A stretch of DNA of 64,000 nucleotides, from contig CBDEGM010000003.1 of the NCBI GenBank assembly GCA_965237715.1, forward strand, positions 1,746,375 through 1,810,374, read 5' to 3'. The notes below the pieces were generated by a model. It was not told where the DNA came from. It searched no databases and saw nothing but the letters and a program-made list of their open reading frames with translations. Numbering within the stretch: position 1 is the first letter of the stretch; every line of letters starts with the position of its first letter. The translations under genes were made by a program, and so were the position numbers. This DNA comes from Acidobacteriota bacterium (GTDB taxonomy: Bacteria > Acidobacteriota > UBA6911 > RPQK01 > CBDEGM01). This document shows positions 5,270 through 51,951 of the stretch, piece after piece.

Positions 5270-5289
5270 AGACGAGGAAAAGGCGAATC

Positions 5290-19058: not shown

Positions 19059-19261
19059 CCCCGGGTCCCGTAAGGTAAAAATATTCGGTCGGGCAGCGGA
19101 TCCTTAGGATAGAAGGGCTCATGGGCGTGCGAGCATCGGAATCTCAGGCGATTTCCGTTGAGAAACCAGCTTTTGGAAACGGGCTCCCGGTGTGAGGTCG
19201 TCGCTCCGGCACAGCGGTGCTGACTCGACCTTCTCCCCAGTCTTATGGAGTGTATCCGAAT

Positions 19262-19603
19262 TCAAGCAGCGTCTCGATAGTAGTATCGAAGCAAGCCAAC
19301 GAGCCTGGGACGGCAACTTAATTCGCCGTCCTTGCGACCCACTTCATCTCCCGCATCAATGATTCGGTTCGCGAGTCCCTGATGATTCCGTTCGTGGTGA
19401 AAGTGCTCTCCGAACTCTCTCAAGGCCCGACGCAATGACGCTTCACCAAAGAAGATCATACGGTTGAGACATTCAGATTTCAGGGAGCGCATGAAGCGTT
19501 CCAGATGAGCATTGAGATTAGGACTCTTGGGAGGTAAGACTACCGCCTCGATGGAGGCTGCCCCAAACTCAGTTGAAAGTGAAGGGCGGTTCAGGTTGAG
19601 CAC
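19262..19603 (-). pseudogene. C-terminal part of the IS481-like transposase (separated from its N-terminus by the IS256-like insertion)
   Basis: Identical to the last 113 aa of the 359-aa transposase. Confidence 0.7.
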
Positions 19604-20987
19604 GATCTTAAGCCACCTTTCGTTTGGCGTCCATAGAAACCTCGTCTCTGAGTTTGGCTTTCAGCATCCAGAGGTCCTGGTAGCCCTGGATGCGCCGGAA
19701 GTTCTTCTCCGTCTCCAGGAAGGCTGAGGCGGCCCAGCGCAGCACCATCTGGCTATCTTTCCAGCGGCTCACTCGGCGGGTCCGCATCCTCACGCCAGAG
19801 TGAGGGCTTTCAATCAGGTTGGTGCTGGCCAGACACAAGCGCAGGGAGGAAGACAACTCGAGTCGATTGATGGTGAAGGTCTCTTCCAGACCTTCTCGCA
19901 GGCTAGCTGCCGCATCGGGATGCAGCCCTTCGAGCCACTCCGCCTGCTTTCTGAGCCGAACCCTCCCTTCTTCCCAGGGCAGCCGATAAGCAGCCTGCAT
20001 CACTGACTTGACTTGCTCGGCCAGATCGTCCGGCAATCGATCGCACACGTTGCGAATCTTATGACGACGACATCTCTGCACCGGACTGCCCTTGCCAAAG
20101 ACCTTGTCAATGGCACATCGCAGGGCCCTGGAGCCGTCAATCACAAACAGATAGCGTCGCCCGGAATCCAGGCCTCGCTCCACCAGGTCTTCCAGCAAGG
20201 AGGTAGCGGTGGCGGCGTTTTCACTGGCCCCTTCCCGCAGCCCCAGCACGTGCTTTTGGCCCTCCGAGTCCACGCCGGCGGCACAGATCACGTGGTGCTC
20301 GCCAAAGACCAGGCCGTCGATGTAGATGATCAGAAACTCAACGTCATCAAAGTGTCGCTCGGCCAGCTGCTCCAGCTGCTGGCCGCTCTGCTCAATGAAC
20401 TGACGGCTCACGGACGATTTGCTGACTCCCACCGTGTCGGCCATCTGGGGGATCACGCGGCTGTAGTGGCGCGTGGAAACGTTGCACGTCAAGATCTCCA
20501 GCATGCGGCTGCCCAGCTCCCCGTTACGGTTGATCGCCTCATAGGCGGGGATCTCCACCTCCCCGCCTCGACCTTGGCCTTTCTTGCGCAGCCGTGGCTT
20601 TCGAACCCGCACTTGCCGCTCCGAAAGTCTGACTCGCCCTGGCTGAGTGCCGTACCAAACGACCTGCTTGCCTGGGCGCCCTTGTTGCTTTTCGCCGGCG
20701 ACACTTCGGGCAGAAAGCTGCAAGACCGCTTCCATGCTCGCTCGCCCCAGGATGTCGATCAACTCGTCAATGGCCATCCGGGGGGCTTCGATCAGCTCCA
20801 CCATCGGGAGCAACAGTTGCCCGTTCTGGGCCAGATAATCAGCCAGCCCCTGACTGTTCTTCCGGGTGACAATTCGATATGATTTCTTCATGGCTGTTCC
20901 TCCTTAAAAGGTTGTTGACCAACCCGATTCTAACGAGTCGGTCGGACGAACCGCCTCTCAACTTTCAACTAAACCCGGGACAGTCTC
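19554..20987 (-). mobile_element. IS256/ISLre2-like IS (1434 bp), roughly 38-bp IRs, 8-bp TSD CCTCGATG
   Basis: TSD at 19546-19553 and 20988-20995; the uninterrupted IS481-like sequence carries a single CCTCGATG. Confidence 0.8.
19608..20891 (-). CDS. Mutator-type (IS256/ISLre2 family) transposase
   Basis: 427 aa; DGSRALRCAIDKVFG...VQRCRRHKIRNV motif. Confidence 0.8.
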   Translation of the reverse strand: MKKSYRIVTRKNSQGLADYLAQNGQLLLPMVELIEAPRMAIDELIDILGRASMEAVLQLSARSVAGEKQQGRPGKQVVWYGTQPGRVRLSERQVRVRKPRLRKKGQGRGGEVEIPAYEAINRNGELGSRMLEILTCNVSTRHYSRVIPQMADTVGVSKSSVSRQFIEQSGQQLEQLAERHFDDVEFLIIYIDGLVFGEHHVICAAGVDSEGQKHVLGLREGASENAATATSLLEDLVERGLDSGRRYLFVIDGSRALRCAIDKVFGKGSPVQRCRRHKIRNVCDRLPDDLAEQVKSVMQAAYRLPWEEGRVRLRKQAEWLEGLHPDAAASLREGLEETFTINRLELSSSLRLCLASTNLIESPHSGVRMRTRRVSRWKDSQMVLRWAASAFLETEKNFRRIQGYQDLWMLKAKLRDEVSMDAKRKVA

Positions 20988-21782
20988 CCTCGATGTCGCT
21001 GGACTTCAAGATCTGACGCAACGGCAAGTGCTTCGTGTCACGGTCAAGGATGACGTGGGCCGAGCTGCGGAAAAAACCGTCGACACAGCCGGTCAGGTTC
21101 CTTCCGAGTTGCTGCATCCATTCGGAGTTGGGGTGAGGCGTCGCACCCGCGATTTCAATGCGCCGCGTCTTTAGATGCATCACCACAAGGACGTAGAACG
21201 TGACCAGTCCTGACCGAGTCCAGACCTCAACGGTCGTAAAGTCGGCGGCTGCGATCGAATCCCAGTGAGCAGCAAGGAAGGTACGCCAGGCCGTGCGGCT
21301 CTCGCGCTCTGGAGCTGGCTCGATGCCGTGGGCTTTGAGAATGTTGCCAACCGTGGTGTCAGAGATGTGGAAGCCCAGGTTGGCTAAAGCACCCTGGATA
21401 CGGTCATAGCCCCAGCTAGGATTCTCCTGAGCCATGCGCAGAGCCAAGTCCACAATCTGTGTCGAATGCGTGGCCGGCCAACGGATTGCCTCTTGTCTGA
21501 GTGATCCCACTTGCGAGCGATAAGCTCTCGATGCCAGCGCAGAAGCGTGTCGGGCCTGACGATCTTGGCCAGTTTGCCGAGGCTTTTTCGGCCCAGCACC
21601 TTGCCCTTGACGGCCAAGCGTCGACGCTGGCCGTCGTTGAGCAGAATGCGGCGCTTGCCGAGCTTTTCTCTGAGTACCTGATTCTCAGTCAAAAGATACT
21701 CGATCGCGTCCTGCTGGTCTCTGTTGATCCAACCGGCCAAGATCAGGAGCAGCAGCTGCCAGGGCCTGAGCACGAAGTTCAT
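20965..21782 (-). pseudogene. N-terminal two-thirds of the IS481-like transposase, with two frameshifts
   Basis: ORFs 20965-21510 and 21384-21782; the [22 protein letters not shown] segment marks the shifted frame. Confidence 0.6.
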
Positions 21783-21927
21783 GGTTGATTAGATGCTCAC
21801 GTCAAGTGCTCAGACGCAAAGGGGGAAAACATTGGGGCTCAACCAAGGCTGACTTCTGTTTGCCGTGACGGTTACAACTTGTTGCACAATAGAGACTTGT
21901 GGGTCGGCTGAATATTTTGACCTTACG

Positions 21928-27793: not shown

Positions 27794-28605
27794 GGCACTG
27801 TCAGAGGAAAGTCGCAAGGACTGAGTTCTCCACCGACGACAGGGAATTAGGCCGCCCCGAGCTGACGCCACTCGGCGAGTGCGGCGGCGCGGTTGAGCTT
27901 GAAATTGTCTCGTGAGCAGAGGTGTCGTGCCTGGTTGAAGTGATTGTAAACGGAAGAATGAACGGTGGCGAATTTCTGGAGGCTTTGCATCCGCCTGAAA
28001 CGGAGCATGGCGTGTTCTCGTCGCCGGAACGGCAGGTGTGAATTCTCCGCACGATTGTTCAGCCAGCGGCCGGCTTGTTGCAGACCGGATCCGCCCAGTT
28101 CGCGCAACGCCGCTCGGTAAGACCTCAGCCGATCAGTGATGATCGCATCCGGCCTGCCGTAGCGCTTCATTAGTTTCCTGAGGAATTTCAAAGCGGCTTC
28201 GCGGTCTCTCTTCTTCGAGACAAAGGCCTCAAGCACCTCGCCTTCCTGGTCGACGGCTCGCCAAAGGTAATGGCCTTCGCCGTTGATCTTCACGAACATC
28301 TCATCGAGGTGCCACCGCCAACCCGAAAACGCGCGCATTCGATCCATCCGCTTCTTGCGGATCTCGGCGGCGAAGATCGGGCCGAACCGGTTCCACCAGA
28401 ACCGGATCGTCTCGTGGCTCACCTCGATCCCACGCTCGTGAAGAAGGTCCTCGACATTGCGTAGCGACAGTGGGAAGCGAACATACATCATCACTGCCAG
28501 GCGGATGATCTCGGGCGAGGTCTTGAAATAGCGAAAGGGGTTCTTCATCCGAAGACACTACAAGGCGCATCTCGCCGACTCAAGCCAGTTTCCTCTGACA
28601 ATGCC
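27794..28605 (-). mobile_element. IS6-family element 2 (812 bp), IRs GGCACTGTCAGAGGAAA / GGCATTGTCAGAGGAAA
   Basis: IRs read directly at both ends. Confidence 0.75.
27847..28548 (-). CDS. IS6-family transposase (distinct from 14931-15653)
   Basis: 233 aa; IS6 pattern SLRNVEDLLHERG...HLDEMFVKING. Confidence 0.85.
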   Translation of the reverse strand: MKNPFRYFKTSPEIIRLAVMMYVRFPLSLRNVEDLLHERGIEVSHETIRFWWNRFGPIFAAEIRKKRMDRMRAFSGWRWHLDEMFVKINGEGHYLWRAVDQEGEVLEAFVSKKRDREAALKFLRKLMKRYGRPDAIITDRLRSYRAALRELGGSGLQQAGRWLNNRAENSHLPFRRREHAMLRFRRMQSLQKFATVHSSVYNHFNQARHLCSRDNFKLNRAAALAEWRQLGAA

Positions 28606-28687
28606 GAGTTTGGCGAATGCATATGGTCCGAGGCGATCGTCGTGAGCATAAAGCCCCCTAAGCCTGCTGGATGCTTCGCGAAACGAT

Positions 28688-28813
28688 ACTGTCAAGTTAA
28701 CCGAAATGCACTCTTTTTCGATGCGAAATCAATTCTAGCCAGCATGGAAAATCAACGACTTAGCTAGTACGTCAATCAGGGTTAACCTCCAGAAAATCAG
28801 TTAACTTGACAGT
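28688..28813. mobile_element. MITE copy a (126 bp; TIR ACTGTCAAGTTAAC, variant-1 interior)
   Basis: Perfect 14-bp TIRs. Confidence 0.6.
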
Positions 28814-29337
28814 GCCGTATCGAGCAATACCTGGATTGCCGGCCGGTCCCCCGGCCGGTCGCCGACATGGTGTAGCCGAACGACTCCCTCCGGGTCGACG
28901 AGCACGTCGCCTCCCAGTTGGCTGACATCGCCACTCGGCATCCGGAGACGCCGCCCCCGTAACAGCAGCTTCATATAGGCCCACCAAGACGGCGGTCCGA
29001 AAATACTCCACCAGTGCCCCCGGTTCATGCCATAGGCCTGATACACCTCCAGCGCACTGTCGATCAGTATCGGCCACTCCAGACGCGTGTCCCGCACATA
29101 GGCCTCGGCGACCGGGCCGCTCTGGAAGGTGACGACGACGACCTGGACATCGAGTTTCTTCAACTCCTTCTTGTGCTGTCGCAACTGCGACAGGTGTTCC
29201 CGGCACGGCAGTCAGGCTAGGTGCCGGTGAAACACCAGCAGTAGCCAGTGTCCGGAGTAGTCCGCGAGCTGGTGCCAGCGGCCTGTGAACTCGGGTAAAC
29301 GGAACCCGACGGCAGGTTGTCCGCGTTTAGTTTCCAT
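28801..29337 (-). CDS. Thioredoxin-fold TlpA/ResA-like redoxin with an in-frame TGA (29212-29214) at the CxxC first-Cys position (U-L-P-C). Candidate selenoprotein, copy A; the last codons and stop lie inside the MITE TIR
   Basis: ORFs 29212-29412 and 28801-29184 are in the same frame, separated only by TGA; alignment to TlpA (F.LP...G..L.D..G..LLV.F....U.PCR.E.P.L; WPILID; YQAYGM; VLVDPEGVV..HVG); hairpin CUGUCGC-AGUU-GCGACAG 21 nt after the UGA. Confidence 0.6.
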
Positions 29338-29474
29338 CGCCTGTGAGGGTGTGGGCAAGGCGCGCAGCAGCTTCGGGACGGTCTGCTCGGCCGTAAACCG
29401 ATTCCGTGACATTCCTAGGACTCTCCCTGGGGCACAGAACCTGCACGATTCTACACCTTATTGACAGGTCCAGT

Positions 29475-30336
29475 CGCGTTGTTGCACAATTCCGGCCGGG
29501 TCACGGACCGATCCCAGTCCTGTTTGAATGCTATCGAATTCGCACTGACTCAGGCATGCCCCGGCTTGACATACGATTCAGCACCTCACATTTGATGATG
29601 GCCTCGACCCGTTGATTGTCGAATCGTCGGGCCGACAGCTTAGGCCCAAACAACGTCTTGAACCTCGACATCGCATTCTCTGCAAGGCTTTGCCTGGCGC
29701 AACCACTGGAGATGCGCCATTCATATCGACCGAGTCTCCTTATTTCTCGTAGATGGGCATCCCGCATTGCCCGCCAGGCAGGCGGGTCCACACTTTCACT
29801 CAGCCGCGCACTGCGTCGCGGAGGGATGGTGGCGACAGCCTCCCGCTCGAGTATCGATTGATAACAGGCCCTCGTGTCATAGGCCCCGTCGCCCGAGACT
29901 TGAACGATGCGACCCGGAATCTGATCCAGCAGGGCCGGCAACAGACGACAGTCGTGGACCCGGCTCGGTGTAACCTCCACCGCCACAATCTCTTTCGTCC
30001 TCTCATCGACACCCAGGTGCAGCTTGCGCCAGGCTCTGCGCCGACCATGTCGATGCTTTCGGACGTGCCATTCACCCGAGCCGTACACTCTCAGGCCCGT
30101 CGCATCCACAACCACGTGCCGAGGCCGACTGCTTGGGCTAACAGTCAAGAACGTCGCCAAGGAACTCTGTCGTCTACTGAGAGTGCTGTAGTCTGGAACT
30201 GGCAGATCGAGTCTGAGCAACTCCAGGAGCGAAGAAACGAAGCCCTGCGTCGACCGAAGGCTAAGATGAAACACCGACTTCAATATCAGCGCACACTGAA
30301 TGGCCGTGTCGGAGTAAACCTTCGGAGCGCCGGGGC
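29475..30336 (-). mobile_element. IS903-group (IS5 family) element, truncated at its transposase-N-terminal end by IS481-like copy 7
   Basis: IR CGCGTTGTTGCACAATTCCGG at 29475; sequence near-identical to the full copy 39048-40111. Confidence 0.75.
29531..30283 (-). pseudogene. IS903-group transposase lacking about 65 N-terminal aa
   Basis: 250 aa aligning to residues 66-315 of the 315-aa transposase. Confidence 0.7.
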
Positions 30337-31555
30337 CGTAAGGTAAAAATATTCGGTCGGGCAGCGGATCCTTAGGATAGAAGGGCTCATGGGCGTGCGA
30401 GCATCGGAATCTCAGGCGATTTCCGTTGAGAAACCAGCTTTTGGAAACGGGCTCCCGGTGTGAGGTCGTCGCTCCGGCACAGCGGTGCTGACTCGACCTT
30501 CTCCCCAGTCTTATGGAGTGTATCCGAATTCAAGCAGCGTCTCGATAGTAGTATCGAAGCAAGCCACCGAGCCTGGGACGGCAACTTAATTCGCCGTCCT
30601 TGCGACCAACTTCATCTCCCGCATCAATGATTCGGTTCGCGAGTCCCTGATGATTCCGTTCGTGGTGAAAGTGCTCTCCGAACTCTCTCAAGGCCCGACG
30701 CAATGACGCTTCACCAAAGAAGATCATACGGTTGAGACATTCAGATTTCAGGGAGCGCATGAAGCGTTCCAGATGAGCATTGAGATTAGGACTCTTGGGA
30801 GGTAAGACTACCGCCTCGATGTCGCTGGACTTCAAGATCTGACGCAACGGCAAGTGCTTCGTGTCACGGTCAAGGATGACGTGGGCCGAGCTGCGGAAAA
30901 AGCCGTCGACACAGCCGGTCAGGTTCCTTCCGAGTTGCTGCATCCATTCGGAGTTGGGGTGAGGCGTCGCACCCGCGATTTCAATGCGCCGCGTCTTTAG
31001 ATGCATCACCACAAGGACGTAGAACGTGACCAGTCCTGACCGAGTCCAGACCTCAACGGTCGTAAAGTCGGCGGCTGCGATCGAATCCCAGTGAGCAGCA
31101 AGGAAGGTACGCCAGGCCGTGCGGCTCTCGCGCTCTGGAGCTGGCTCGATGCCGTGGGCTTTGAGAATGTTGCCAACCGTGGTGTCAGAAATGTGGAAGC
31201 CCAGGTTGGCTAAAGCACCCTGGATACGGTCATAGCCCCAGCTAGGATTCTCCTGAGCCATGCGCAGAGCCAAGTCCACAATCTGTTGTCGAATGCGTGG
31301 CCGGCCAACGGATTGCCTCTTGTCTGAGTGATCCCACTTGCGAGCGATAAGCTCTCGATGCCAGCGCAGAAGCGTGTCGGGCCTGACGATCTTGGCCAGT
31401 TTGCCGAGGCTTTTTCGGCCCAGCACCTTGCCCTTGACGGCCAAGCGTCGACGCTGGCCGTCGTTGAGCAGAATGCGGCGCTTGCCGAGCTTTTCTCTGA
31501 GTACCTGATTCTCAGTCAAAAGATACTCGATCGCGTCCTGCTGGTCTCTGTTGAT
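30337..31555 (-). mobile_element. IS481-like copy 7 (minus), 5' end removed by MITE copy c
   Basis: Right-end IR at 30337; homology stops at 31555, where the MITE TIR begins. Confidence 0.75.
30530..31519 (-). CDS. IS481-like transposase (ORF starts about 25 aa into the protein)
   Basis: 329 aa identical to the 359-aa family. Confidence 0.7.
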   Translation of the reverse strand: MTENQVLREKLGKRRILLNDGQRRRLAVKGKVLGRKSLGKLAKIVRPDTLLRWHRELIARKWDHSDKRQSVGRPRIRQQIVDLALRMAQENPSWGYDRIQGALANLGFHISDTTVGNILKAHGIEPAPERESRTAWRTFLAAHWDSIAAADFTTVEVWTRSGLVTFYVLVVMHLKTRRIEIAGATPHPNSEWMQQLGRNLTGCVDGFFRSSAHVILDRDTKHLPLRQILKSSDIEAVVLPPKSPNLNAHLERFMRSLKSECLNRMIFFGEASLRRALREFGEHFHHERNHQGLANRIIDAGDEVGRKDGELSCRPRLGGLLRYYYRDAA

Positions 31556-32100: not shown

Positions 32101-34165
32101 GTGCGCGCGCACCGGATGCGCTGCGAATCGCAGCATCGATCCGGACAACGGGGTTCCTGCCGGCGGATGGGGTTCGCGCCGAACTACGGTGTCTTTCGCG
32201 GGTCGAGCAGCCCTATCTCAGTGGATGTCGATGAGGTAGTGATATCGGCGCACGAGACAGCGGCTGTCGTCAAGGCTCATCAGGTTGCGGAGGAATGCGT
32301 TGCAACACTTAGCTCGAAGGGTCGCCAACATCAGTGTGCCGCAGCAAGCGGCGTGAGAGATGGGAGTAGGCCTCCCGCAACCGGCTTGCAGGAGCAGGTT
32401 GCAAACCACCGTAAGTGGCTGTGGTTAAAAGCCGCGGTCGTGAGCGTTACGGAAAAGGTGCTCTAGAAGCATCAGGTGTGGATCAGGAAGACGAACACAA
32501 GTGAACCACCGTTCAAGTGCCGAAAGGACGAGATGGTGTCGAAACCGGGGAGTTGGTGTTGCCCCGGGACGAATCTGGCGGAAACCTGTCTACTGGTCAG
32601 GTGGCACCCGGCATAGAGGTGGCGTGAGCTTGATCTGGGCTCTCATGTTGAACTGCGGGAACCTGGAGCAACGATGCTAAGAGAAAGGCACAAGCAGAGA
32701 ACCTGCGAGGCCGACAGTATCGAAGCGTTGCCCAGGGGCGGACAAGCTCGTAGTAGCGATGAGGCTGCCGTAATGGCAGCGGAGCGAAGGGGCTTGGTCA
32801 CTCGGCTACAGACAAGCGGCCAACTGCTAGGCAGGAGGAGCCCTTGAAAGTAGCAAAGCCATTTGAGGTTTCTAAGAAGCTGGCAGGGCAAGCATACTTG
32901 GAGGTGAAGTCCAAAGGAGGTGCCGCAGGAGTCGATGGCGAGTCGCTTGAACTCTTCGAGCACAACTTGAAGAACAACCTCTATCGAATCTGGAACCGGC
33001 TGTGCTCCGGGAGCTATTTTCCACCACCCGTGAAAGCCGTGCCAATCCCGAAGAAATCGGGGGGCACGCGTGTTCTCGGAGTGCCTGCGGTCTCTGATCG
33101 AATCGCACAGACAGTGGTGAAGCAAGCCCTGGAGCCGATACTGGAACCGGTGTTCGATGAGGATTCTTTCGGCTATCGACCGGGAAAGTCTGCCCATGAC
33201 GCGATTGCCATCACCCGGAAACGGTGTTGGCGATACGACTGGGTGGTGGAGTTCGATATCCGCGCCCTGTTCGACAACATTGACCACGAACTGCTCATGA
33301 AGGCGTTACGCCACCATTGTCAGTGTCGTTGGGTGTTGTTGTACGTGGAGCGCTGGTTGCAGGCTCCACTTGAGCAGCCCGGCGGCAGTCTACAGGCGCG
33401 CGACAAAGGCACACCGCAAGGTGGAGTTGTGAGCCCTATTCTGGCAAATCTGTTCTTGCACTACGCGTTTGACGCGTGGGTGAGACGCCAACTGCCGGGG
33501 GTTCCATTTTGTCGATACGCCGACGATGGGCTGCTGCACTGCAAGAGCCAGTCTCAGGCGGAATACGTGATGAGCCTTATCTCGGAACGCTTCCGTGAGT
33601 GTGGGTTGGAGATCCATCCCGACAAATCGTCGATCGTCTATTGCAAGGATGTGAATCGCCTGGAAGAGCATTCGCGAATCAGCTTTGATTTCCTTGGTTA
33701 CACTTTCCGTCCGCGACGGTGTGTGAACAAGAAAGGGCAGGTTCACCCGAACTTTCTTCCTGCGATCAGTATCTCCTCGAAGAAGGAGATCAATCGATGC
33801 ATGCGTAGCTGGCATGTCCAGCTCAAGAACGAGAAGACGTTGTTGGATCTGTCTCAGATGTTCAATCCGAAACTCCGTGGTTGGCAAGCCTGCTATGGTT
33901 GCTTCCACGCGTCGGCACTGCGTCAACTGTGGCGGAACTTCAACCGGTATCTTGTGCAGTGGGTGCGAAGGAAACTCAAAAGATTTTCTGGGCATCGGCA
34001 ACGGGCGAGGCGTTACCTCGACCAGATTGCCCGTGCCAATCCGCATCTATTTATTCATTGGCGTCTTGGAGTCTTTCCTTGTGGCTTGAGTGATAGGAGC
34101 CGGATGAGCTGAGAGGTTCACGTCCGGTTCTTGGAGGGGCTGGGGGTGAGACTCCCCCGGCCTAC
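32101..34165 (+). mobile_element. Group II intron (5' GUGCG; domain V at 34097-34130; ORF in domain IV)
   Basis: Domain V GAGCCGGAUGAGCUGAGAGGUUCACGUCCGGUUC with the AGC triad; the 3' boundary is approximate. Confidence 0.7.
32844..34112 (+). CDS. Group II intron reverse transcriptase/maturase
   Basis: RT domains 0-7 with YADD; maturase X domain; 422 aa. Confidence 0.9.
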   Translation: MKVAKPFEVSKKLAGQAYLEVKSKGGAAGVDGESLELFEHNLKNNLYRIWNRLCSGSYFPPPVKAVPIPKKSGGTRVLGVPAVSDRIAQTVVKQALEPILEPVFDEDSFGYRPGKSAHDAIAITRKRCWRYDWVVEFDIRALFDNIDHELLMKALRHHCQCRWVLLYVERWLQAPLEQPGGSLQARDKGTPQGGVVSPILANLFLHYAFDAWVRRQLPGVPFCRYADDGLLHCKSQSQAEYVMSLISERFRECGLEIHPDKSSIVYCKDVNRLEEHSRISFDFLGYTFRPRRCVNKKGQVHPNFLPAISISSKKEINRCMRSWHVQLKNEKTLLDLSQMFNPKLRGWQACYGCFHASALRQLWRNFNRYLVQWVRRKLKRFSGHRQRARRYLDQIARANPHLFIHWRLGVFPCGLSDRSRMS

Positions 34166-34736
34166 TCAACCATCTTCTTCAACCACAACAAGGAAACTAG
34201 TTCGCCACCTCTTCGGTACATTTGCCCCCTTGATCTCTATGATGGACCGGAACTCCCCGCCGATGCTAGCGTGCCCGCTTACGCCGATTCATGCACCAAT
34301 GCCCTTCAACTAGTGTAGCGATCGGGACCCTCATTTCACTTGCGAAAAGTTTCCCCATTTTTCAAAAAGTTCACCCGTTCCACTTGTTAATCTTCCTAAC
34401 TCAACCATGTCAATTGGTTAGCAGAATCTCACCTGAATTTTTGGGGAAACTCCTGCAAGTGGCATGTACTAAAAAATCGGGGGAAAAAAAGGGAGGAAGG
34501 GCAGAGAAATTTAGGCGGACAAGCGGCCCTGAAAATGCATTATGCCGCGCGGGAGCGCAATGTCCGGAGCGACAGCATTTTACAACAGAGCATGAGCTGG
34601 CTACAATAACGGTCCGCTGAGATGGAGGCGTAAGCTTCCCCAGAAAAGACCCCATCCAAAAGTAGAATTTTCTGGCCCAAGGACAGAAGATGGGACAGGT
34701 TTCGCAGCAGATCGGGGTGACCGAGCAGACCTACTT

Positions 34737-35709: not shown

Positions 35710-35760
35710 CATCGAAGACAAGCCCCCCCCGAAGCGATTCATGCAACAAGCCGTCTTGGA
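35710..35760. repeat. Degenerate IS903-group-like terminal IR remnant (CGAAGCGATTCATGCAACAAGCCG)
   Basis: Compare CGAAGCGATTTATGCAACAACGCG at 40091-40111. Confidence 0.4.
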
Positions 35761-35825
35761 ACCCCAAAGCATTGTGCCGAAGACGACCCCGAGCAAGATG
35801 GGGGGCAGGAAGCTGCCGCCGACAA

Positions 35826-36362
35826 ATGGAAACTAAACGCGGACAACCTGCCGTCGGGTTCCGTTTACCCGAGTTCACAGGCCGCTGGCACCAGCTCGCG
35901 GACTACTCCGGACACTGGCTACTGCTGGTGTTTCACCGGCACCTAGCCTGACTGCCGTGCCGGGAACACCTGTCGCAGTTGCGACAGCACAAGAAGGAGT
36001 TGAAGAAACTCGATGTCCAGGTCGTCGTCGTCACCTTCCAGAGCGGCCCGGTCGCCGAGGCCTATGTGCGGGACACGCGTCTGGAGTGGCCGATACTGAT
36101 CGACAGTGCGCTGGAGGTGTATCAGGCCTATGGCATGAACCGGGGGCACTGGTGGAGTATTTTCGGACCGCCGTCTTGGTGGGCCTATATGAAGCTGCTG
36201 TTACGGGGGCGGCGTCTCCGGATGCCGAGTGGCGATGTCAGCCAACTGGGAGGCGACGTGCTCGTCGACCCGGAGGGAGTCGTTCGGCTACACCATGTCG
36301 GCGACCGGCCAGGGGACCGGCCGGCAATCCAGGTATTGCTCGATACGGCACTGTCAAGTTAA
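35826..36362 (+). CDS. TlpA-like redoxin candidate selenoprotein, copy B (TGA at 35949-35951, UxxC)
   Basis: Identical architecture to copy A; ORFs 35682-35951 and 35979-36362 in the same frame; the stop codon sits inside the MITE TIR. Confidence 0.6.
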
Positions 36363-36443
36363 CTGATTTTCTGGAGGTTACCCTGATTGACGTACTAGCT
36401 AAGTCGTTGATTTTCCATGCTGGCTAGAATTGATTTCGCATCG
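36349..36443. mobile_element. MITE copy b (variant 1), truncated by an IS903-group insertion
   Basis: One TIR plus about 80 bp of interior; the reverse complement matches copy a. Confidence 0.5.
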
Positions 36444-36825
36444 ACGCGTTGTTGCACAATTCCGGTCGGGGTCACGGACCGATCCCAGTCCTGTTTGAAT
36501 GCTATCGAATTCGCACTGACTCAGGCATGCCCCGGCTTGACATACGATTCAGCACCTCACATTTGATGATGGCCTCGACCCGTTGATTGTCGAATCGTCG
36601 GGCCGACAGCTTAGGCCCAAACAACGTCTTGAACCTCGACATCGCATTCTCTGCAAGGCTTTGCCTGGTGCAACCACTGGAGATGCGCCATTCATATCGA
36701 CCGAGTCTCCTTATTTCTCGTAGATGGGCATCCCGCATTGCCCGCCAGGCAGGCGGGTCCACACTTTCACTCAGCCGTGCACTGCGTCGCGGAGGGATGG
36801 TGGCGACAGCCTCCCGCTCGAGTTC
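36444..36825 (-). mobile_element. IS903-group fragment (IR plus the transposase C-terminal 86 codons)
   Basis: Homology to 39048-39430 stops at 36825. Confidence 0.65.
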
Positions 36826-40202: not shown

Positions 40203-43200
40203 TCAATCTCCGGAAAATGCTTCAAGCTGGCTTGAGTTCGGATGTATCCGATCCGTGTAGAGGTGCCGTTTAAAACGATTGTCGTCAAGGCGATAGATCG
40301 CAGTGTGACGCAAGCGGCCACCAAACCCAGAGCCCACTTGAATCCCGCCGTAGGCACTCTTCTCACCAGCGATCACCCAGATTGCTGAGAGATCTTGCCG
40401 GTTGAGCATCTGCAAAAATGCGTCGCGATCGACAAGAGCCCCTGCGGGGCCAGATTCAACGACGGACGGATCATAGAATGTGCCTTGTCCATCTGAGCCG
40501 ACAAAAATCAGCGATCTCCCACTCGACAGCCGAAGTCCCATTTTCTCGGCTAGCCAGGGAGCAGGTATTTTGAATATAATCGTCTGATCGATTGAGTAGT
40601 CATAGTCGCCGCTCTCGCATGCGTAGGAGGCGATCGTTGGGCGTGTTGGCACGGCGAAGGCCTGCTGATCGTCGTGCGAACTCCACCGTCCGAATTCGCT
40701 CATTTCTGGGTGCCAAGGATATTCTCCGAGGTGAAAATACCCAGAATAAAGTTCGATCTTTGGGAATGAGCTGGGATCTGTCAGAATTTTGTCCTGGAGA
40801 CTTTTGACCATCTTAGCTTGGTCTTTGCGGCGTACGACGATGCAGGTAAGCCGAAACCACGTTTCCCGCTGAATCTCCCTCTTCCCGGCCCGCACGCCAG
40901 CACCTTTCCATGTTGAAAATCCCGAGAGGGCAAGCCATCTTCGGCCCGTCTTTGGATTACACAAATCAATCAGAGCTTTATTGTTGATGATGTCGCTGTC
41001 ACTGTCCAGCCAAGCAAGACGCTCGTGGGGATCCACCGCGCGAAGCGTAGGATTGAAAGGCACCCACCACGTTTTGCGCCACTCGGCCCAACCCTTGTAA
41101 TAGGTCTGAGTAGTCAAGAAGGACGGATCGATATCGCATAGTCCGACTTCACGGGCTCCTCGATATAGGGGTGGTTCGTCATCGTCTTGTTTCCATGGAT
41201 TGTCTAAGAAGGCAAGATTGTCCGCCATGCGGGCTACAAGTTCTTGGAGTGCAAGCCATTGGTACTTCTTGCCGATGCGTTCGATCCTGTGGCCGTTTCG
41301 GTCGTAGCCGCAGAAGTGATTGTCGAAATCACCGAAGCGTTTCGATGTCCAACCCAGTTCATGGGCTCGCTTGCAGATCCATCGACGGCCCCAATGAACG
41401 TCGAAGTGTGCGGCTCGATCCGCAAAGAGTTTGTGCCGGAAAAAGTCCTTTGCTCGAACTCGGAAGTCTTCCCATTGGTCCGACGCCATCGTCTGCTGAA
41501 GAGCCCCCTCGGCGGCGGCCAACCGCTCCGCCTCCGGACTGGACTGATGGCCGTGAACATCCTTAATTCCCTCGGTGGTGCTAACATATTCCTTAAAGGC
41601 CACAAGTTGGTCTGCGGTTGCACTGGCGACAAATTCCTGTATCCAGGTTCTGCAAATGTCGAGCGAAGTCGGTAGCGGCATTGCTCCGATTTTTGCAGGA
41701 CTCCATTTGTTCACCTTGTGATCAACTACATATCGCGCAAAGTCGCCCTCATGGACGGTGGAGAATACAATCGCGTCGCCAACGGACCCGCGCCCATGAT
41801 CCTCGGTATAGCCCTTAATCAATTCGTCCGGTACCGGTTCGATAGGCCAAGGACTTTGATATGGCGGCCGTGCAAGCGCAAGGTCGATTGAGCTATCCAG
41901 TACGCCGCAGTACGCTGCGTACTCTACAATACATCGGGCATGGTCGCGCAGAAGCGCATTCGCCGGTGGTTTCCCGTTGGCAAAGACCGTGTCGAAAACC
42001 ACCTGGGCAAGTTTGCCGAGTCCCGCTTCCCGCGTTCCTTGAAGAGCGGCGCCATAGCAAGCAGCCAACAGACGCTCAAGAACATACGGATCATTCACAC
42101 TCACAAAGTCGCCCAGTAAACGAGCGGCGAGCAAAAGCCGCCGACTCAGCACGCTAGCAAGGGCCTTGGTAGCCTTATCCCTGACCTCCCGGTGCGATGT
42201 GGCAAGGAACCAAGTGAGCATTGTCGAAGCCAAGTACGCACGATCCCCGTCTATATGCTCAAGATCACTTTGAAGCGCCCAGGAAATCAGTGTCTTGACA
42301 GGCTCATCGAAGCCACGCTCTGCCAAATAGACCGACCAGCGCGCATCGCGCTCCGGCATCGTCATTCCCATGAGCCGCTTATGGACAAAGAGTGCATTGA
42401 ATTTGTTAGACGTCTCTGTGCTGATTGCGACAAGCAGGTCGGTCAACTCGTCCGCTTGAACCAAGCCTCGAACTAGTTCGAACGTGTGACTAGTAAAGTG
42501 AGACTGCTCACGCCAAAGGAGGCTATTCAGAAAAGCGTCCCGCACTGTATACGAAGCGTCAGATCCAACATCCAATATCTCAACGCGGGTCCGTTCCGGG
42601 AGTTGAATGGTCATCGCCTCGATGATTCCGGCGCGTTCATAATTCTCCGTCCCGAAAACACACTTATGGAGAGGCTGGTCGGCTTGAAAGGAACTAGCCA
42701 CATTGTGGGTATTGAGATGGTCATCGAGCAAGTGCGACGCTATAGCATGATCGCTGAAACGCTCGAACGTGAAGCGAACCATTTCAGCAAGCGATCCATC
42801 ATCTTGCCGCAAGGGTTCGACGGTGAGAAGACCTCCGTTTTCCAGCTGCGCTAGCAGACTCTTCTCAAGGCTTCCTCTCGAGTCGAGAACCGATTCAAAC
42901 AGAGTAACTACGTCGCTTTTCGCGGCATATCCTTTGCCGGCGCCCACGAGTAATTGCGCAAAGCTGGCGATAGCCTTTGATACGATTTCCAGATGAGGGT
43001 CGAGCCTCATTCCCCGGTTCAGCGACTGAGATACAGCCTCGTTGTAGAATTTAAAGATCGATGTGACGCCGCGCAAACCTCTAGGAAATTCGGTTTTTCC
43101 CTCCTTTTCCAAGGAGTCGCAGCACATTTTCAAGAAAAGCGGATTTTCAAACTCGGGAACGAGATTAGGTGCCCCAGGTCGGACCATTCCTCGTTTGTCG

Positions 43201-44702
43201 AGGTACACCTTCGCAGCTTCGCCCCCGTTCGCCGCAAAGCCTCTGTGATCGACACGGAGGAGCCGATCTTCATCTATGTCATCCGGGATCACATGCCGAA
43301 CATAGGTCGAGCGGCATGACACGATCACGCTGACTCGCGGGAAAGCCTCGAAAGTATTGAGAAAGGCTGCGAGACGCTGCGGCCAGACATTAACGCCGTT
43401 GCGTTCGTTCAAAGCATCGATGCACACAATTGCTCTCAAGCTCGCGGCCTGCGCTGCTGCGTCCAGACTCGCGAGGAAGTATTTGAACTGCACCGTTGGT
43501 GGATGATCGAGTTGATCGCGAATCTGCGGCCACAGTTCAGCGTCGATAAACGCTTCGCCGAGAAAGAGCAGCGCTGGCCCACCTTCGTGAAGTTGATGCT
43601 CCACGATGTCGGCAAGCAAATGGGACTTACCGATGCCGGCCGGGCCCTGAAGCAGAACTGCCTGCGCGTTGGTCAGCCGCCAACGGTTCGAAGCGAGGTC
43701 GCTCTTGATTTCATGCAGTACCTCCATCAGTTCATAGAGGGTATGTTGCACCAAGCGTTCGGACTTGATGCCCATACTGCCGGGCTTGGAAGGCGGAAGG
43801 TCGTAGGACCAACGAAGGGCCTTTCTAGCGAGGTCGAGACCGTCTGCAGCTGCGGCACTCCAATCGGTTACAGGATAGGGTTGGTCGGGGCCGATTGGAT
43901 CCCCGTCAAGCAAAGACGTCAGAGCACAAATTGCCTCATCCAGAGGATCGATATGGGTTTCGGCTTCCTCCGCACCTGTTCCGCGTATGGCTTTTACGGC
44001 GCCGCTTCCTTTTTCGTTGACGCGTATAAACCACCCATCGATCTGCCTCTGAAGCTCAGGATGGCGTGCGAAGGCGAGGAAGTCCTGTCTGATTGGGAGT
44101 TCAACGTTTGTTTCGGGAGTGTATCGGCTGCCCAGAGACGCCCTTGCCTTCCCAAATTGCTCCTTGAACCAAGTCGTTGTTAGGGCCGCGTGGCCGAACC
44201 AGTACAGGACTCGACCTGAGTGGGCGGGGTCTTCTCTGACCAGACGAAGGCTGAGTTCGCTCTTGCCCCACAACCTGATAGTCAGGTCACGCTTCTGCAA
44301 TGCGGCAAACTCTTCCCATTTCGTGCACCAAGCGTCCCACTTCTCTTGTGCGGTCTTGCCCTTGCCGGTTCGGGAATCGGGAAGATCGAACGGAAGGCAG
44401 ACGATGTAATTAACGAGATTCGGGTGCCTATTCAACGCCGTGCATATTGAAACGTCAAGCTGTGCTGTCAGGCTTGCATTCCAGCTAAAGAGGTACTTGG
44501 CTTGCCATCCGACTTCCGTCCCGTCTGCACGGCGGCGGTAGCATTCGACACCAGCGTCGCCGCCCCGGCCTTTCCGATAGAATTTTCCTTCCGTGGATGT
44601 TGGCTCCAAAGAGGCGAGTTGGCAACACATTTCCTCAAACCCGGCGTGACGGCTTCCGTCAACCGGGCGAATCTTCTCGAAATTGATGTCTGGTAGGCTC
44701 AT
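40203..44702 (-). CDS. Avs4-like antiviral STAND NTPase: N-terminal Mrr-type PD-(D/E)xK nuclease, P-loop STAND ATPase and a long helical C-terminal sensor (1499 aa)
   Basis: Mrr-cat-like GGDAGVEC..(13)..GWQAKY; Walker A GPAGIGKSHLL; Walker B IVCIDALNE; sensor-1 VSVIVSCRST; about 900 aa of C-terminal helical region. Confidence 0.55.
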   Translation of the reverse strand: MSLPDINFEKIRPVDGSRHAGFEEMCCQLASLEPTSTEGKFYRKGRGGDAGVECYRRRADGTEVGWQAKYLFSWNASLTAQLDVSICTALNRHPNLVNYIVCLPFDLPDSRTGKGKTAQEKWDAWCTKWEEFAALQKRDLTIRLWGKSELSLRLVREDPAHSGRVLYWFGHAALTTTWFKEQFGKARASLGSRYTPETNVELPIRQDFLAFARHPELQRQIDGWFIRVNEKGSGAVKAIRGTGAEEAETHIDPLDEAICALTSLLDGDPIGPDQPYPVTDWSAAAADGLDLARKALRWSYDLPPSKPGSMGIKSERLVQHTLYELMEVLHEIKSDLASNRWRLTNAQAVLLQGPAGIGKSHLLADIVEHQLHEGGPALLFLGEAFIDAELWPQIRDQLDHPPTVQFKYFLASLDAAAQAASLRAIVCIDALNERNGVNVWPQRLAAFLNTFEAFPRVSVIVSCRSTYVRHVIPDDIDEDRLLRVDHRGFAANGGEAAKVYLDKRGMVRPGAPNLVPEFENPLFLKMCCDSLEKEGKTEFPRGLRGVTSIFKFYNEAVSQSLNRGMRLDPHLEIVSKAIASFAQLLVGAGKGYAAKSDVVTLFESVLDSRGSLEKSLLAQLENGGLLTVEPLRQDDGSLAEMVRFTFERFSDHAIASHLLDDHLNTHNVASSFQADQPLHKCVFGTENYERAGIIEAMTIQLPERTRVEILDVGSDASYTVRDAFLNSLLWREQSHFTSHTFELVRGLVQADELTDLLVAISTETSNKFNALFVHKRLMGMTMPERDARWSVYLAERGFDEPVKTLISWALQSDLEHIDGDRAYLASTMLTWFLATSHREVRDKATKALASVLSRRLLLAARLLGDFVSVNDPYVLERLLAACYGAALQGTREAGLGKLAQVVFDTVFANGKPPANALLRDHARCIVEYAAYCGVLDSSIDLALARPPYQSPWPIEPVPDELIKGYTEDHGRGSVGDAIVFSTVHEGDFARYVVDHKVNKWSPAKIGAMPLPTSLDICRTWIQEFVASATADQLVAFKEYVSTTEGIKDVHGHQSSPEAERLAAAEGALQQTMASDQWEDFRVRAKDFFRHKLFADRAAHFDVHWGRRWICKRAHELGWTSKRFGDFDNHFCGYDRNGHRIERIGKKYQWLALQELVARMADNLAFLDNPWKQDDDEPPLYRGAREVGLCDIDPSFLTTQTYYKGWAEWRKTWWVPFNPTLRAVDPHERLAWLDSDSDIINNKALIDLCNPKTGRRWLALSGFSTWKGAGVRAGKREIQRETWFRLTCIVVRRKDQAKMVKSLQDKILTDPSSFPKIELYSGYFHLGEYPWHPEMSEFGRWSSHDDQQAFAVPTRPTIASYACESGDYDYSIDQTIIFKIPAPWLAEKMGLRLSSGRSLIFVGSDGQGTFYDPSVVESGPAGALVDRDAFLQMLNRQDLSAIWVIAGEKSAYGGIQVGSGFGGRLRHTAIYRLDDNRFKRHLYTDRIHPNSSQLEAFSGD

Positions 44703-45115: not shown

Positions 45116-45123
45116 TTCGGTAC

Positions 45124-45245
45124 TGTCAAGTTAACCGATTTGGTGTCTAATCAGCGCCTCGGCCACTCCCTAAGTTGTTGATTCTACATTCGACCGCCGA
45201 CCGTTTCCGCCTCCAAAACCCGAGAACTCCACTTAACTTGACAGT
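45124..45245. mobile_element. MITE copy d (122 bp, variant 2)
   Basis: TA-CTGTCAAGTTAAC...GTTAACTTGACAG-TA. Confidence 0.6.
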
Positions 45246-47058: not shown

Positions 47059-47185
47059 TTCTCTGGCGACTCTCCCTCCATCGGTAGAATCTGCTGCTTC
47101 TCCGATGGATTGGATCTCACCCGCTGCGCCTTCTCGAAAGTCACGTCTTCGGCCAGGGGGTTGTCTACGCGCTTCCCGCCCAAGG

Positions 47186-47274
47186 GTACTGTCAAGTTAA
47201 CCGATTTGGTGTCTAATCAGCGCCTCGGCCACTCCCTAAGTTGTTGATTCTACATTCGACCGCCGACCGTTTCC
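47186..47274. mobile_element. MITE copy e (variant 2), 3'-truncated by insertion of IS481-like copy 1
   Basis: Identical to copy d up to ...CCGACCGTTTCC, then the IS IRL. Confidence 0.55.
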
Positions 47275-48691
47275 CGTAAGGTCAAAATATTCAGCCGACC
47301 CACAAGTCTCTATTGTGCAAAAAGTTGTAACCGTCACGGCAAACAGAAGTCAGCCTTGGTTGAGCCCCAATGTTTTCCCCCTTTGCGTCTGAGCACTTGA
47401 CGTGAGCATCTAATCAACCATGAACTTCGTGCTCAGGCCCTGGCAGCAGCTGCTCCTGATCTTGGCCGGTTGGATCAACAGAGACCAGCAGGACGCGATC
47501 GAGTATCTTTTGACTGAGAATCAGGTACTCAGAGAAAAGCTCGGCAAGGGCCGCATTCTGCTCAACGACGGCCAGCGTCGACGCTTGGCCGTCAAGGGCA
47601 AGGTGCTGGGCCGAAAAAGCCTCGGCAAACTGGCCAAGATCGTCAGGCCCGACACGCTTCTGCGCTGGCATCGAGAGCTTATCGCTCGCAAGTGGGATCA
47701 CTCAGACAAGAGGCAATCCGTTGGCCGGCCACGCATTCGACAACAGATTGTGGACTTGGCTCTGCGCATGGCTCAGGAGAATCCTAGCTGGGGCTATGAC
47801 CGTATCCAGGGTGCTTTAGCCAACCTGGGCTTCCACATTTCTGACACCACGGTTGGCAACATTCTCAAAGCCCACGGCATCGAGCCAGCTCCAGAGCGCG
47901 AGAGCCGCACGGCCTGGCGTACCTTCCTTGCTGCTCACTGGGATTCGATCGCAGCCGCCGACTTTACGACCGTTGAGGTCTGGACTCGGTCAGGACTGGT
48001 CACGTTCTACGTCCTTGTGGTGATGCATCTAAAGACGCGGCGCATTGAAATCGCGGGTGCGACGCCTCACCCCAACTCCGAATGGATGCAGCAAGCCGGA
48101 AGGAACCTGACCGGCTGTGTCGACGGCTTTTTCCGCAGCTCGGCCCACGTCATCCTTGACCGTGACACGAAGCACTTGCCGTTGCGTCAGATCTTGAAGT
48201 CCAGCGACATCGAGGCGGTAGTCTTACCTCCCAAGAGTCCTAATCTCAATGCTCATCTGGAACGCTTCATGCGCTCCCTGAAATCTGAATGTCTCAACCG
48301 TATGATCTTCTTTGGTGAAGCGTCATTGCGTCGGGCCTTGAGAGAGTTCGGAGAGCACTTTCACCACGAACGGAATCATCAGGGACTCGCGAACCGAATC
48401 ATTGATGCGGGAGATGAAGTTGGTCGCAAGGACGGCGAATTAAGTTGCCGTCCCAGGCTCGGTGGCTTGCTTCGATACTACTATCGAGACGCTGCTTGAA
48501 TTCGGATACACTCCATAAGACTGGGGAGAAGGTCGAGTCAGCACCGCTGTGCCGGAGCGACGACCTCACACCGGGAGCCCGTTTCCAAAAGCTGGTTTCT
48601 CAACGGAAATCGCCTGAGATTCCGATGCTCGCACCCCATGAGCCCTTCTATTCTAAGGATCCGCTGCCCGACCGAATATTTTTACCTTACG
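47275..48691 (+). mobile_element. IS481-like IS copy 1 (1417 bp), imperfect 25-bp IRs CGTAAGGT(C/A)AAAATATTC(A/G)G(C/T)CG
   Basis: Ends defined by comparing five full copies. Confidence 0.85.
47420..48499 (+). CDS. IS481-like rve-type DDE transposase (359 aa)
   Basis: HTH N-terminus, integrase core with ...SPNLNAHLERFMRSLKSE. Confidence 0.85.
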   Translation: MNFVLRPWQQLLLILAGWINRDQQDAIEYLLTENQVLREKLGKGRILLNDGQRRRLAVKGKVLGRKSLGKLAKIVRPDTLLRWHRELIARKWDHSDKRQSVGRPRIRQQIVDLALRMAQENPSWGYDRIQGALANLGFHISDTTVGNILKAHGIEPAPERESRTAWRTFLAAHWDSIAAADFTTVEVWTRSGLVTFYVLVVMHLKTRRIEIAGATPHPNSEWMQQAGRNLTGCVDGFFRSSAHVILDRDTKHLPLRQILKSSDIEAVVLPPKSPNLNAHLERFMRSLKSECLNRMIFFGEASLRRALREFGEHFHHERNHQGLANRIIDAGDEVGRKDGELSCRPRLGGLLRYYYRDAA

Positions 48692-50705: not shown

Positions 50706-51950
50706 GTCTGCTCCTGATCTTGGCCGGTTGGATCAACAGAGACCAGCAGGACGCGATCGAGTATCTTTTGACTGAGAATCAGGTACTCAGAGAAAAGCTC
50801 GGCAAGCGCCGCATTCTGCTCAACGGCGACCAGCGTCGACGCTTGGCCGTCAAGGGCAAGGTGCTGGGCCGAAAAAGCCTCGGCAAACTGGCCAAGATCG
50901 TCAGGCCCGACACGCTTCTGCGCTGGCATCGAGAGCTTATCGCTCGCAAGTGGGATCACTCAGACAAGAGGCAATCCGTTGGCCGGCCACGCATTCGACA
51001 CAGATTGTGGACTTGGCTCTGCGCATGGCTCAGGAGAATCCTAGCTGGGGCTTATGACCGTATCCAGGGTGCTTTAGCCAACCTGGGCTTCCACATCTCT
51101 GACACCACGGTTGGCAACATTCTCAAAGCCCACGGCATCGAGCCAGCTCCAGAGCGCGAGAGCCGCACGGCCTGGCGTACCTTCCTTGCTGCTCACTGGG
51201 ATTCGATCGCAGCCGCCGACTTTACGACCGTTGAGGTCTGGACTCGGTCAGGACTGGTCACGTTCTACGTCCTTGTGGTGATGCATCTAAAGACGCGGCG
51301 CATTGAAATCGCGGGTGCGACGCCTCACCCCAACTCCGAATGGATGCAGCAAGCCGGAAGGAACCTGACCGGCTGTGTCGACGGCTTTTTCCGCAGCTCG
51401 ACCCACGTCATCCTTGACCGTGACACGAAGCACTTGCCGTTGCGTCAGATCTTGAAGTCCAGCGACATCGGGGCGGTAGTCTTACCTCCCAAGAGTCCTA
51501 ATCTCAATGCTCATCTGGAACGCTTCATGCGCTCCCTGAAATCTGAATGTCTCAACCGTATGATCTTCTTTGGTGAAGCGTCATTGCGTCGGGCCTTGAG
51601 AGAGTTCGGAGAGCACTTTCACCACGAACGGAATCATCAGGGACTCGCGAACCGAATCATTGATGCGGGAGATGAAGTTGGTCGCAAGGACGGCGAATTA
51701 AGTTGCCGTCCCAGGCTCGGTGGCTTGCTTCGATACTACTATCGAGACGCTGCTTGAATTCGGATACACTCCATAAGACCGAGGAGAAGGTCGAGTCAGC
51801 ACCGCTGTGCCGGAGCGACGACCTCACACCGGGAGCCCGTTTCCAAAAGCTGGTTTCTCAACGGAACTCGCCTGAGATTCCGATGCTCGCACGCCCATGA
51901 GCCCTTCTATCCTAAGGATCCGCTGCCCGACCGAATATTTTTACCTTACG
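50706..51950 (+). mobile_element. IS481-like copy 2, lacking about 195 bp of its 5' end, with frameshifts in the transposase
   Basis: Homology starts inside the ORF; same [18 protein letters not shown] frame-shift signature as copy 6. Confidence 0.7.
50708..51757 (+). pseudogene. Degenerate IS481-like transposase
   Basis: Two compensating indels and E-to-G changes. Confidence 0.6.
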
Positions 51951-51951
51951 C

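Follow-up and report, generated by a model that had tools for sequence, protein, structure and literature searches.

A candidate selenocysteine-encoding UGA codon and SECIS-type hairpin in a SelL-related redox protein gene from a mobile-element-rich region of an Acidobacteriota genome

The locus

The 64,000-nucleotide stretch of contig CBDEGM010000003.1 of an Acidobacteriota bacterium (assembly GCA_965237715.1, positions 1,746,375 to 1,810,374 of the forward strand; hereafter the window, that is, the whole stretch of DNA that was analysed) carries two copies of a small gene whose reading frame contains a single in-frame TGA codon followed by a hairpin of the selenocysteine insertion sequence (SECIS) type. 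This gene very probably encodes a cytoplasmic SelL-related/peroxiredoxin-like-2 thioredoxin-fold oxidoreductase, in which selenocysteine (Sec, U; motif U42-L-P-C45) takes the place of the nucleophile, the first Cys of the CxxC motif. In the first copy, two minus-strand open reading frames (ORFs), 29212-29412 and 28801-29184, lie in one frame, and the TGA at 29212-29214 is the sole interruption between them, as was stated in an earlier note on this DNA and is borne out by the ORF list and the translation. The main features of copy 1 are as follows.

28801-29337, minus strand: candidate selenoprotein gene copy 1, starting with the ATG at 29337 and stopping with the TAA at 28801-28803; the product has 178 amino acids (aa), Sec42 among them (ORFs, translation, match to the family model NF040769, DNA homology)
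29212-29214, minus strand: predicted Sec codon UGA, first residue of U-L-P-C (motif codons 29203-29214; alignment with Cys homologues, TGA in 81 of 83 loci)
29176-29193, minus strand: SECIS-type hairpin CUGUCGC-AGUU-GCGACAG, with a 7-bp stem and an AGUU loop (RNAalifold, covariation, loop conservation)

The DNA homology of copy 1 to its relatives at loci L001-L012 begins precisely at the ATG at 29337 (METKRG...), so the conserved product has 178 residues, which is the length that the earlier note had given for the joined product. An alternative in-frame start codon, ATG 29410-29412, would result in a 203-aa product with 25 additional residues (MSRNRFTAEQ...) that are specific to the window.

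Conservation of the in-frame TGA codon

In the alignment with full-length Cys-containing homologues, which read HRHLG-C-LPC-REH, the window reads HRHLA-TGA-LPC-REH, and the TGA column corresponds to the first Cys of HRHLGCLPCREH in proteins P0004, P0006, P0008, P0017, P0019, and P0105. The earlier note had placed the TGA at the first Cys of a WCxPC motif; comparison with the Cys homologues confirms that the column is that of the redox Cys, the first of the CxxC pair, but no Trp precedes the motif. Related loci (80 from species-representative genomes and 3 from metagenomic contigs) were retrieved with a peptide pattern, QLGGDV.., that is distant from the TGA. Of these 83 loci, 81 have TGA at the Sec site and the other two have TGT, a ratio that is biased to close relatives of the Sec-type query and gives no whole-family estimate. 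The TGA-containing loci come from at least eight phyla (Acidobacteriota, Planctomycetota, Myxococcota, Gammaproteobacteria, Verrucomicrobiota, Rokubacteria, Chloroflexota, and Hydrogenedentota), the closest ones being from Acidobacteriota, with 86-89% amino acid identity. Within the closest clade, the ratio of nonsynonymous to synonymous substitution rates (dN/dS) is 0.21 over the 41 codons that precede the TGA and 0.36 over those that follow, and the N-terminal 41 codons are conserved across all 83 loci. Both halves of the gene, before and after the TGA, are thus under purifying selection.

A lone in-frame stop codon amid transposable elements fits the look of a pseudogene, and this is how gene callers handle the locus. 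It is nevertheless exceedingly improbable that an inactivating nonsense mutation or a misassembly produced the TGA and that the locus represents a Cys-type redoxin pseudogene: the identical TGA is found in both window copies and in nearly all related loci across those phyla, the dN/dS values are far below 1 on either side of it, and the covarying hairpin described below goes with the TGA and is missing from the Cys forms. Furthermore, the related loci are 50-90% identical and therefore cannot be copies of one misassembled sequence.

The UGA could also be decoded otherwise, through reassignment to Trp or Gly or through readthrough, or the product could be a C-terminal fragment of 127-138 aa translated from a TTG or CTG codon just past the UGA. 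Three database entries (P0005, P0013, and P0072) indeed give W at this codon, and many others begin at the L codon after the TGA, with P0022 and P0032 starting as MPCREH. However, TGA serves as the ordinary stop codon of 13 of the 22 window ORFs, which indicates the standard genetic code, and the column in question holds Cys in homologues, never a sense-coded Trp or Gly. A fragment, in turn, would lose the strands at the N terminus of the fold together with its first redox residue, and the lowest dN/dS is seen in the 41 codons ahead of the TGA. Non-Sec decoding and a fragment product are, accordingly, very improbable alternatives to a full-length protein with Sec at position 42.

The SECIS-type hairpin

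The hairpin starts 18 nucleotides (nt) past the last base of the UGA, i.e., 21 nt past its U, and the distance from the UGA to the loop is 25 nt. The stem-loop of the earlier note, described as lying 21 nt downstream, thus holds in both sequence and spacing, with the 21 nt counted from the U. The constraints published for bacterial SECIS elements comprise a loop of 3-9 nt, a stem of 4-16 bp, a G in the first two loop positions, a UGA-to-loop distance of 16-37 nt, and a minimum free energy of -7.5 kcal/mol or lower (PMC13188914). The region downstream of the TGA agrees with this bacterial SECIS (bSECISearch) model in every respect, having a 4-nt loop with G in the second position followed by U, a 7-bp stem, a 25-nt distance, and an energy of -14 kcal/mol for a 50-nt segment. 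As a single sequence, this segment folds no better than expected by chance (z = -0.16, with 76 of 200 shuffled sequences being as stable), so the significance of the hairpin comes from the cross-locus comparison only.

In that comparison, RNAalifold recovers exactly this helix de novo from a gap-free alignment of 75 distinct TGA-containing sequences. Paired cells make up 94.7% of the total, versus 81.8% in shuffled alignments (none of 500 reaching the observed value) and 18-72% in controls with a slid partner, and there are 65 compensatory cells, versus 17 in shuffles (again 0 of 500), with double changes at four of the seven pairs; these covariation counts are made without phylogenetic correction, and the paired codons are also constrained by the protein sequence. 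The AGUU loop is identical in all 82 TGA sequences, at least six of the seven pairs are formed in 81 of the 82, and the apex GC-AGUU-GC is invariant, whereas five independent Cys lineages retain only 2-5 of the seven pairs and have variable loops. The Leu codon in the loop is TTG in 81 of 81 sequences, compared to 18% of the Leu codons elsewhere in the same genes, and the Gln codon before it is CAG in 81 of 81, compared to 61% elsewhere. Such frozen synonymous codons within the hairpin point to a constraint at the RNA level. A search of Rfam at a permissive threshold found no family that matches the hairpin. Taken together, the conservation of the TGA, the covarying hairpin that is lost in the Cys forms, and the dN/dS values make a strong comparative case for the predicted selenoprotein.

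Family assignment and predicted fold

The joined product matches the Pfam domains AhpC-TSA (PF00578; E = 2.6e-19, 69.8 bits, cutoff 26) and AhpC-TSA_2 (PF13911; E = 2.6e-14, 54 bits, cutoff 27), and both matches span the TGA. With the window protein in which Cys was put in place of U as the query, the NCBIfam model NF040769, "SelL-related redox protein," gives a score of 173.2 bits (cutoff 120, E = 3.7e-51) over model positions 4-172 of 173. The same name is carried by Cys-form relatives, such as P0004, in the NCBI records. On the strength of these profile matches, the predicted protein is a member of the SelL-related/peroxiredoxin-like-2 family (NF040769, PF13911) and not of TlpA/ResA, to which the earlier note had aligned it along its full length. 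The scores against the NCBIfam models of ResA (NF002854, 41.3 bits versus a cutoff of 170) and TlpA (NF047696, 20.3 bits versus a cutoff of 230) fall far short, the N terminus (METKRGQPAVGFRLPEFTGRWHQLADYSGH) shows no hydrophobic segment, signal, or anchor, and the motif reads A-U-L-P-C, without the Trp of W-C-x-x-C. Assignment to the AhpC/BCP/PrxQ peroxiredoxins was likewise rejected, as their P-x-x-x-T-x-x-C motif is replaced in the window by R-H-L-A-U-L-P-C, with Sec at the Thr position and no Pro four residues ahead of it; in the alignment with the structure 2cx3, the peroxidatic Cys pairs only with the second Cys of the window motif.

In CxxC enzymes, the attacking Cys is usually found at the start of the first helix. 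The structure that was modelled here is that of P0004, a Cys homologue with 57% identity to the window protein (AlphaFold, pLDDT 93); the model has a thioredoxin/peroxiredoxin fold, in which the first motif Cys opens helix 43-54, after strand 31-36. The nearest solved structure to this model is the human prostamide/PGF synthase PRXL2B (PDB 9usa; TM-scores 0.76/0.84, root mean square deviation 2.0 Å, 24% identity), and the next matches are BCP/PrxQ peroxiredoxins and ResA.

Proposed decoding and chemistry

In the proposed decoding scheme, SelB carrying Sec-tRNA(Sec) would bind the hairpin 18 nt downstream, with the AGUU loop presenting G-U in the same way as bacterial SECIS elements do, and the in-frame UGA would be recoded. 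The resulting selenolate, located where the first helix begins, would attack an oxidised substrate, which could be a disulfide or, as in PRXL2B, a peroxide or endoperoxide; U42 would then form a selenenylsulfide with Cys45, to be re-reduced by a thioredoxin-type donor. The protein could thus act as a cytoplasmic selenol/thiol reductase that cycles via a Se-S bond between U42 and C45. Sec insertion in this host, expression of one or the other copy, and the nature of the substrate and of the reductant are inferred rather than read from the sequence itself.

At one of the related loci (L085, positions 1-2567), the gene of a Cys homologue shares 4 nt with each of its neighbours, the genes for a 512-aa pyridine-nucleotide disulfide oxidoreductase (upstream) and a radical-SAM protein (downstream). 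These neighbours could hint at a redox partner.

The 3' end of the gene

The reading frame of copy 1 runs into the end of a short element that lies next to an insertion sequence (IS).

28685-28816, minus strand: short non-coding element of ~132 bp with IS6-like terminal inverted repeats GGCACTGTCAAGTTAAC / GATACTGTCAAGTTAAC (inverted repeat; junction relative to L002-L012; GGCACTGTCA in common with the IS6-family neighbour)
27794-28605, minus strand: IS6-family insertion sequence with a 233-aa DDE_Tnp_IS240 transposase at 27847-28548 (Pfam, 2e-41); its inverted repeat begins with GGCACTGTCA

The last four codons of the gene, GCA CTG TCA AGT (ALSS), and the TAA stop codon (28801-28815) fall inside the element end GGCACTGTCAAGTTAAC, which extends from 28816 downwards. 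Close relatives end in ...LLDTVRRGRHRAF or ...VRRGRQR, whereas both window copies continue as LLDT-ALSS-stop from the junction GATAC/GGCACTGTCAAGTTAA, so that mobile-element ends provide the stop codon in both and the native tail (VRRGRHRAF) of 9-11 codons has been swapped for ALSS-stop. The replaced residues are poorly conserved and fall past position 172 of the family model, which has 173 positions.

The arms of the short element are 26 nt long and 85% complementary, with the core ACTGTCAAGTTAAC; its first 10 nt (GGCACTGTCA) are identical to the start of the adjacent IS6-family inverted repeat, and the remainder differs. The IS6-family element at 27794-28605 has a 99% identical copy in L003. 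The earlier note had described the short element as a miniature inverted-repeat transposable element (MITE) that forms the 3' end of the gene. It is indeed short and non-coding, has terminal inverted repeats, and supplies the last four codons and the stop; however, it is flanked by no target-site duplication or direct repeat, and no independently inserted copy was found, the only other one in the window being part of a 620-bp segmental duplicate and none being present in the 83 related loci. The label is therefore limited here to a MITE-like, IS6-related end. The native 3' end of the gene was not found on the far side of the element.

Two 90-bp segments of the window (45119-45208 and 47185-47274, the latter cut by an IS insertion) are 100% identical to each other and start with the terminal repeat of the short element (GCACTGTCAAGTTAAC...), sharing only that repeat with it. 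These segments may mark a longer relative of the element. In L001, which carries a 99.6% identical gene, the junction around position 10377 is at the same base as window position 28816 (GATAC/GGCACTGTC), and the element is a different one, diverging after 9 nt. This coincidence suggests that an exchange has taken place between IS6-like elements or that insertion has a common hotspot here.

The second copy and the duplication

The second copy, which the earlier note had mentioned, is carried by an inverted duplicate at 35826-36444. The two copies and their boundaries comprise the following features.

35826-36362, plus strand: candidate selenoprotein gene copy 2, with the UGA at 35949-35951 and the hairpin at 35970-35987; protein identical to that of copy 1 (blastn, tblastn, pairwise alignment)
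35754-35825, plus strand: native upstream leader of 72 nt, kept by copy 2 only and common to L001-L012 (blastn extents, alignment)
36347-36444, plus strand: shortened version of the short element at the 3' end of gene copy 2, interrupted at position 36445 by an IS5-like insertion
29338-29474, minus strand: non-native 137-nt segment upstream of copy 1, unlike the upstream DNA of any relative and occurring once in the window
29475-30337, minus strand: fragment of an IS5-like element that bounds copy 1 upstream (self-blast; Pfam DDE_Tnp_1)

The duplicate is 620 bp long and 99.7% identical (28718-29337 corresponds to 36444-35826). The two copies are arranged head to head, 6.5 kb apart, with IS fragments and a group II intron between them, and the IS5-like element at the upstream boundary of copy 1 recurs at 36445-36823, where it interrupts the copy-2 version of the short element. 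With its short-element ends facing outwards, the inverted pair has a layout like that of a composite transposon. The 137-nt segment upstream of copy 1 had no match in a Pfam search, and the candidate identification of its MSRNRFTAEQ... leader as the start of an IS3 orfA was dropped, as it had no Pfam support and no further copy; the new leader possibly originates from a mobile element.

The arrangement raises the question of whether the family could be a genuine selenoprotein family while both window copies are dead, unexpressed, or inactive passengers of IS-mediated rearrangements. Their surroundings consist entirely of mobile DNA, no promoter-like site is present on the sense strand, the native 3' end is gone from both copies and the gene does not resume past the element; the copies are also recent duplicates, so that their intactness says little. 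Nevertheless, this explanation appears unlikely. Both copies, and likewise the 99.6% identical copy in L001, have an intact frame, UGA, and hairpin, the only residues replaced are the poorly conserved ones at the very end, past model position 172 of 173, copy 2 retains the 72-nt leader that is common to all close relatives, and purifying selection is seen across the clade as a whole.

Several observations weigh against a functional selenoprotein gene in this window, in addition to the chance-level fold of the single sequence and the uncorrected covariation counts. The C-terminal tail is replaced in both copies, copy 1 is without the native leader, and a promoter scan revealed no sense-strand sigma-70-like promoter upstream of copy 1 or copy 2. 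ARAGORN found no tRNA-Sec, either in the 64-kb window or across ~800 kb of DNA flanking the related loci, and six-frame motif scans for SelA, SelD, and a SelB-type GTP-binding motif (one that is common to SelB and other translational GTPases) returned nothing in the window and the 83 loci. Finally, clustering of the flanking ORFs at all loci identified no conserved operon partner that would point to the substrate; the only clusters consisted of ORFs that are antisense shadows of the gene, and of an ABC transporter present at nine loci. Selenoproteins have been reported from some Acidobacteria (PMC1794560).

Surrounding mobile DNA

The first 14.8 kb of the window (1-14.8 kb) encode housekeeping functions (arginase, ddl, psd, pssA, mgtE, recO, glyQS, lpxD, murJ, and a tyrosine recombinase), and the part beyond 14.8 kb is an IS-dense island. 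Apart from the elements listed above, the island contains the following.

32362-34170, plus strand: group II intron (Rfam group-II-D1D4-2 at 32362-32477, 112 bits; Intron_gpII at 34095-34170, 60 bits), with a reverse-transcriptase/maturase ORF at 32844-34112
47272-48691, 51951-53369, 56047-57466, and 60287-61707: 1.42-kb IS with a 359-aa rve_3 transposase, with at least seven copies, full or partial, that are mutually 99% identical
30337-31555, 50708-51950, and 19069-19553 plus 20988-21927: partial copies of the 1.42-kb rve_3 IS

One of the rve_3 IS copies is split by a Mutator-family IS (transposase ORF 19608-20891), and the same rve_3 IS is found, with 98-99% identity, in the metagenomic contigs L001 and L002. 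The island also carries two large ATPase ORFs on the minus strand, one at 40203-44702 (1499 aa, with weak similarity to NACHT/AAA_16) and the other at 53493-56111 (872 aa, AAA_13, 3e-30).

A block of ~600 bp, consisting of the 72-nt leader and the coding sequence, is ~90% identical at the nucleotide level in nine Acidobacteriota species-representative metagenome-assembled genomes with unrelated flanks (L004-L012, ~4930-5580). Two of these loci, L007 and L010, are on a single contig, CBDCKA010000002.1, as two copies 1.5 Mb apart. A tentative possibility is that the gene with its internal SECIS is a small horizontally mobile unit (~600 bp) of soil Acidobacteriota that travels with IS-type elements. 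It is suggested by the high identity of the block in nine genomes with unrelated flanks, by the presence of two copies on one contig, by the composite-transposon-like layout in the window, and by the element ends that contribute the stop codon of both window copies and possibly the new leader of copy 1, and we consider it doubtful on balance. If true, IS-type elements would spread and rewire a Sec-encoding gene between Sec-competent hosts; for the time being, the mobile-element link is a minor twist of unproven significance. On its opposite strand, the leader resembles a remnant of a membrane-protein gene (L010 ORF 4498-5010).

Annotation of the family

The family is systematically misannotated, with most public gene calls cut at the UGA. 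Among the retrieved proteins (P0001-P0104), the calls are mostly C-terminal fragments of 125-138 aa that start just past the TGA, some of which nonetheless bear the name "SelL-related redox protein"; the three entries mentioned above render the Sec codon as W, and one call stops at ...HRHLA. Raw sequence was enough to spot this candidate selenoprotein gene. The retrieved loci belong, in their overwhelming majority, to the Sec type, and the SECIS apex is constant across phyla, which should make the family easy to re-annotate and its hairpin a convenient natural SECIS for reporter work.

Comparison with known systems

Similarly to the bacterial SECIS consensus and the SECIS element of E. coli fdhF, the hairpin described here is located within the coding region just past the UGA and combines a stable stem with a small loop in which G is followed by U. 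It differs from them in that its apex, GC-AGUU-GC, is invariant across phyla, whereas, according to the literature, bacterial SECIS elements generally show little resemblance from one family to the next.

At the protein level, the closest counterpart is the NF040769 family itself, whose curated cutoff is passed over the whole model and which has the same HRHL(G/A)-[U/C]-LPC-REH centre. No essential difference from this family was seen, apart from the last 9-11 native residues, which in the window copies have given way to the ALSS of the mobile-element end. PRXL2B has a CxxC centre (C44 and C47) at the equivalent site, but it is a eukaryotic protein with Cys instead of Sec, and the endoperoxide substrate is established for PRXL2B only, so that its carry-over to the bacterial family is conjectural. 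What the window protein shares with TlpA/ResA is the thioredoxin fold, a CxxC-type centre, and weak similarity in sequence and fold.

Selenoprotein L (SelL), which occurs in aquatic animals and in marine bacteria, is by description also a Prx-like (peroxiredoxin-like) selenoprotein of the thioredoxin fold with a redox motif at the same place. SelL reportedly carries two Sec residues (UxxU) that form a diselenide. By this description, its motif differs from the UxxC of the window protein. The literature refers to SelL as "a Prx-like protein" and notes UxxU variants in a Prx-like family (PMC2398784).

Prx-like and Redoxin-family UxxC selenoproteins have been described from the genomes of bacteria and from metagenomes of the ocean (Kryukov & Gladyshev 2004; Zhang et al. 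2006, 2008), with Prx-like 1/2/3 among the published groups, and are listed in the table of a 2026 review, in which NF040769 does not appear by name. These proteins resemble the one described here in having UxxC in a fold of the PF00578/PF08534 type, Cys-containing homologues, and an intragenic SECIS. Selenoproteins with UxxC in a thioredoxin fold are thus well known since 2004-2008, and the window gene adds a member to a family that has its own NCBIfam model.

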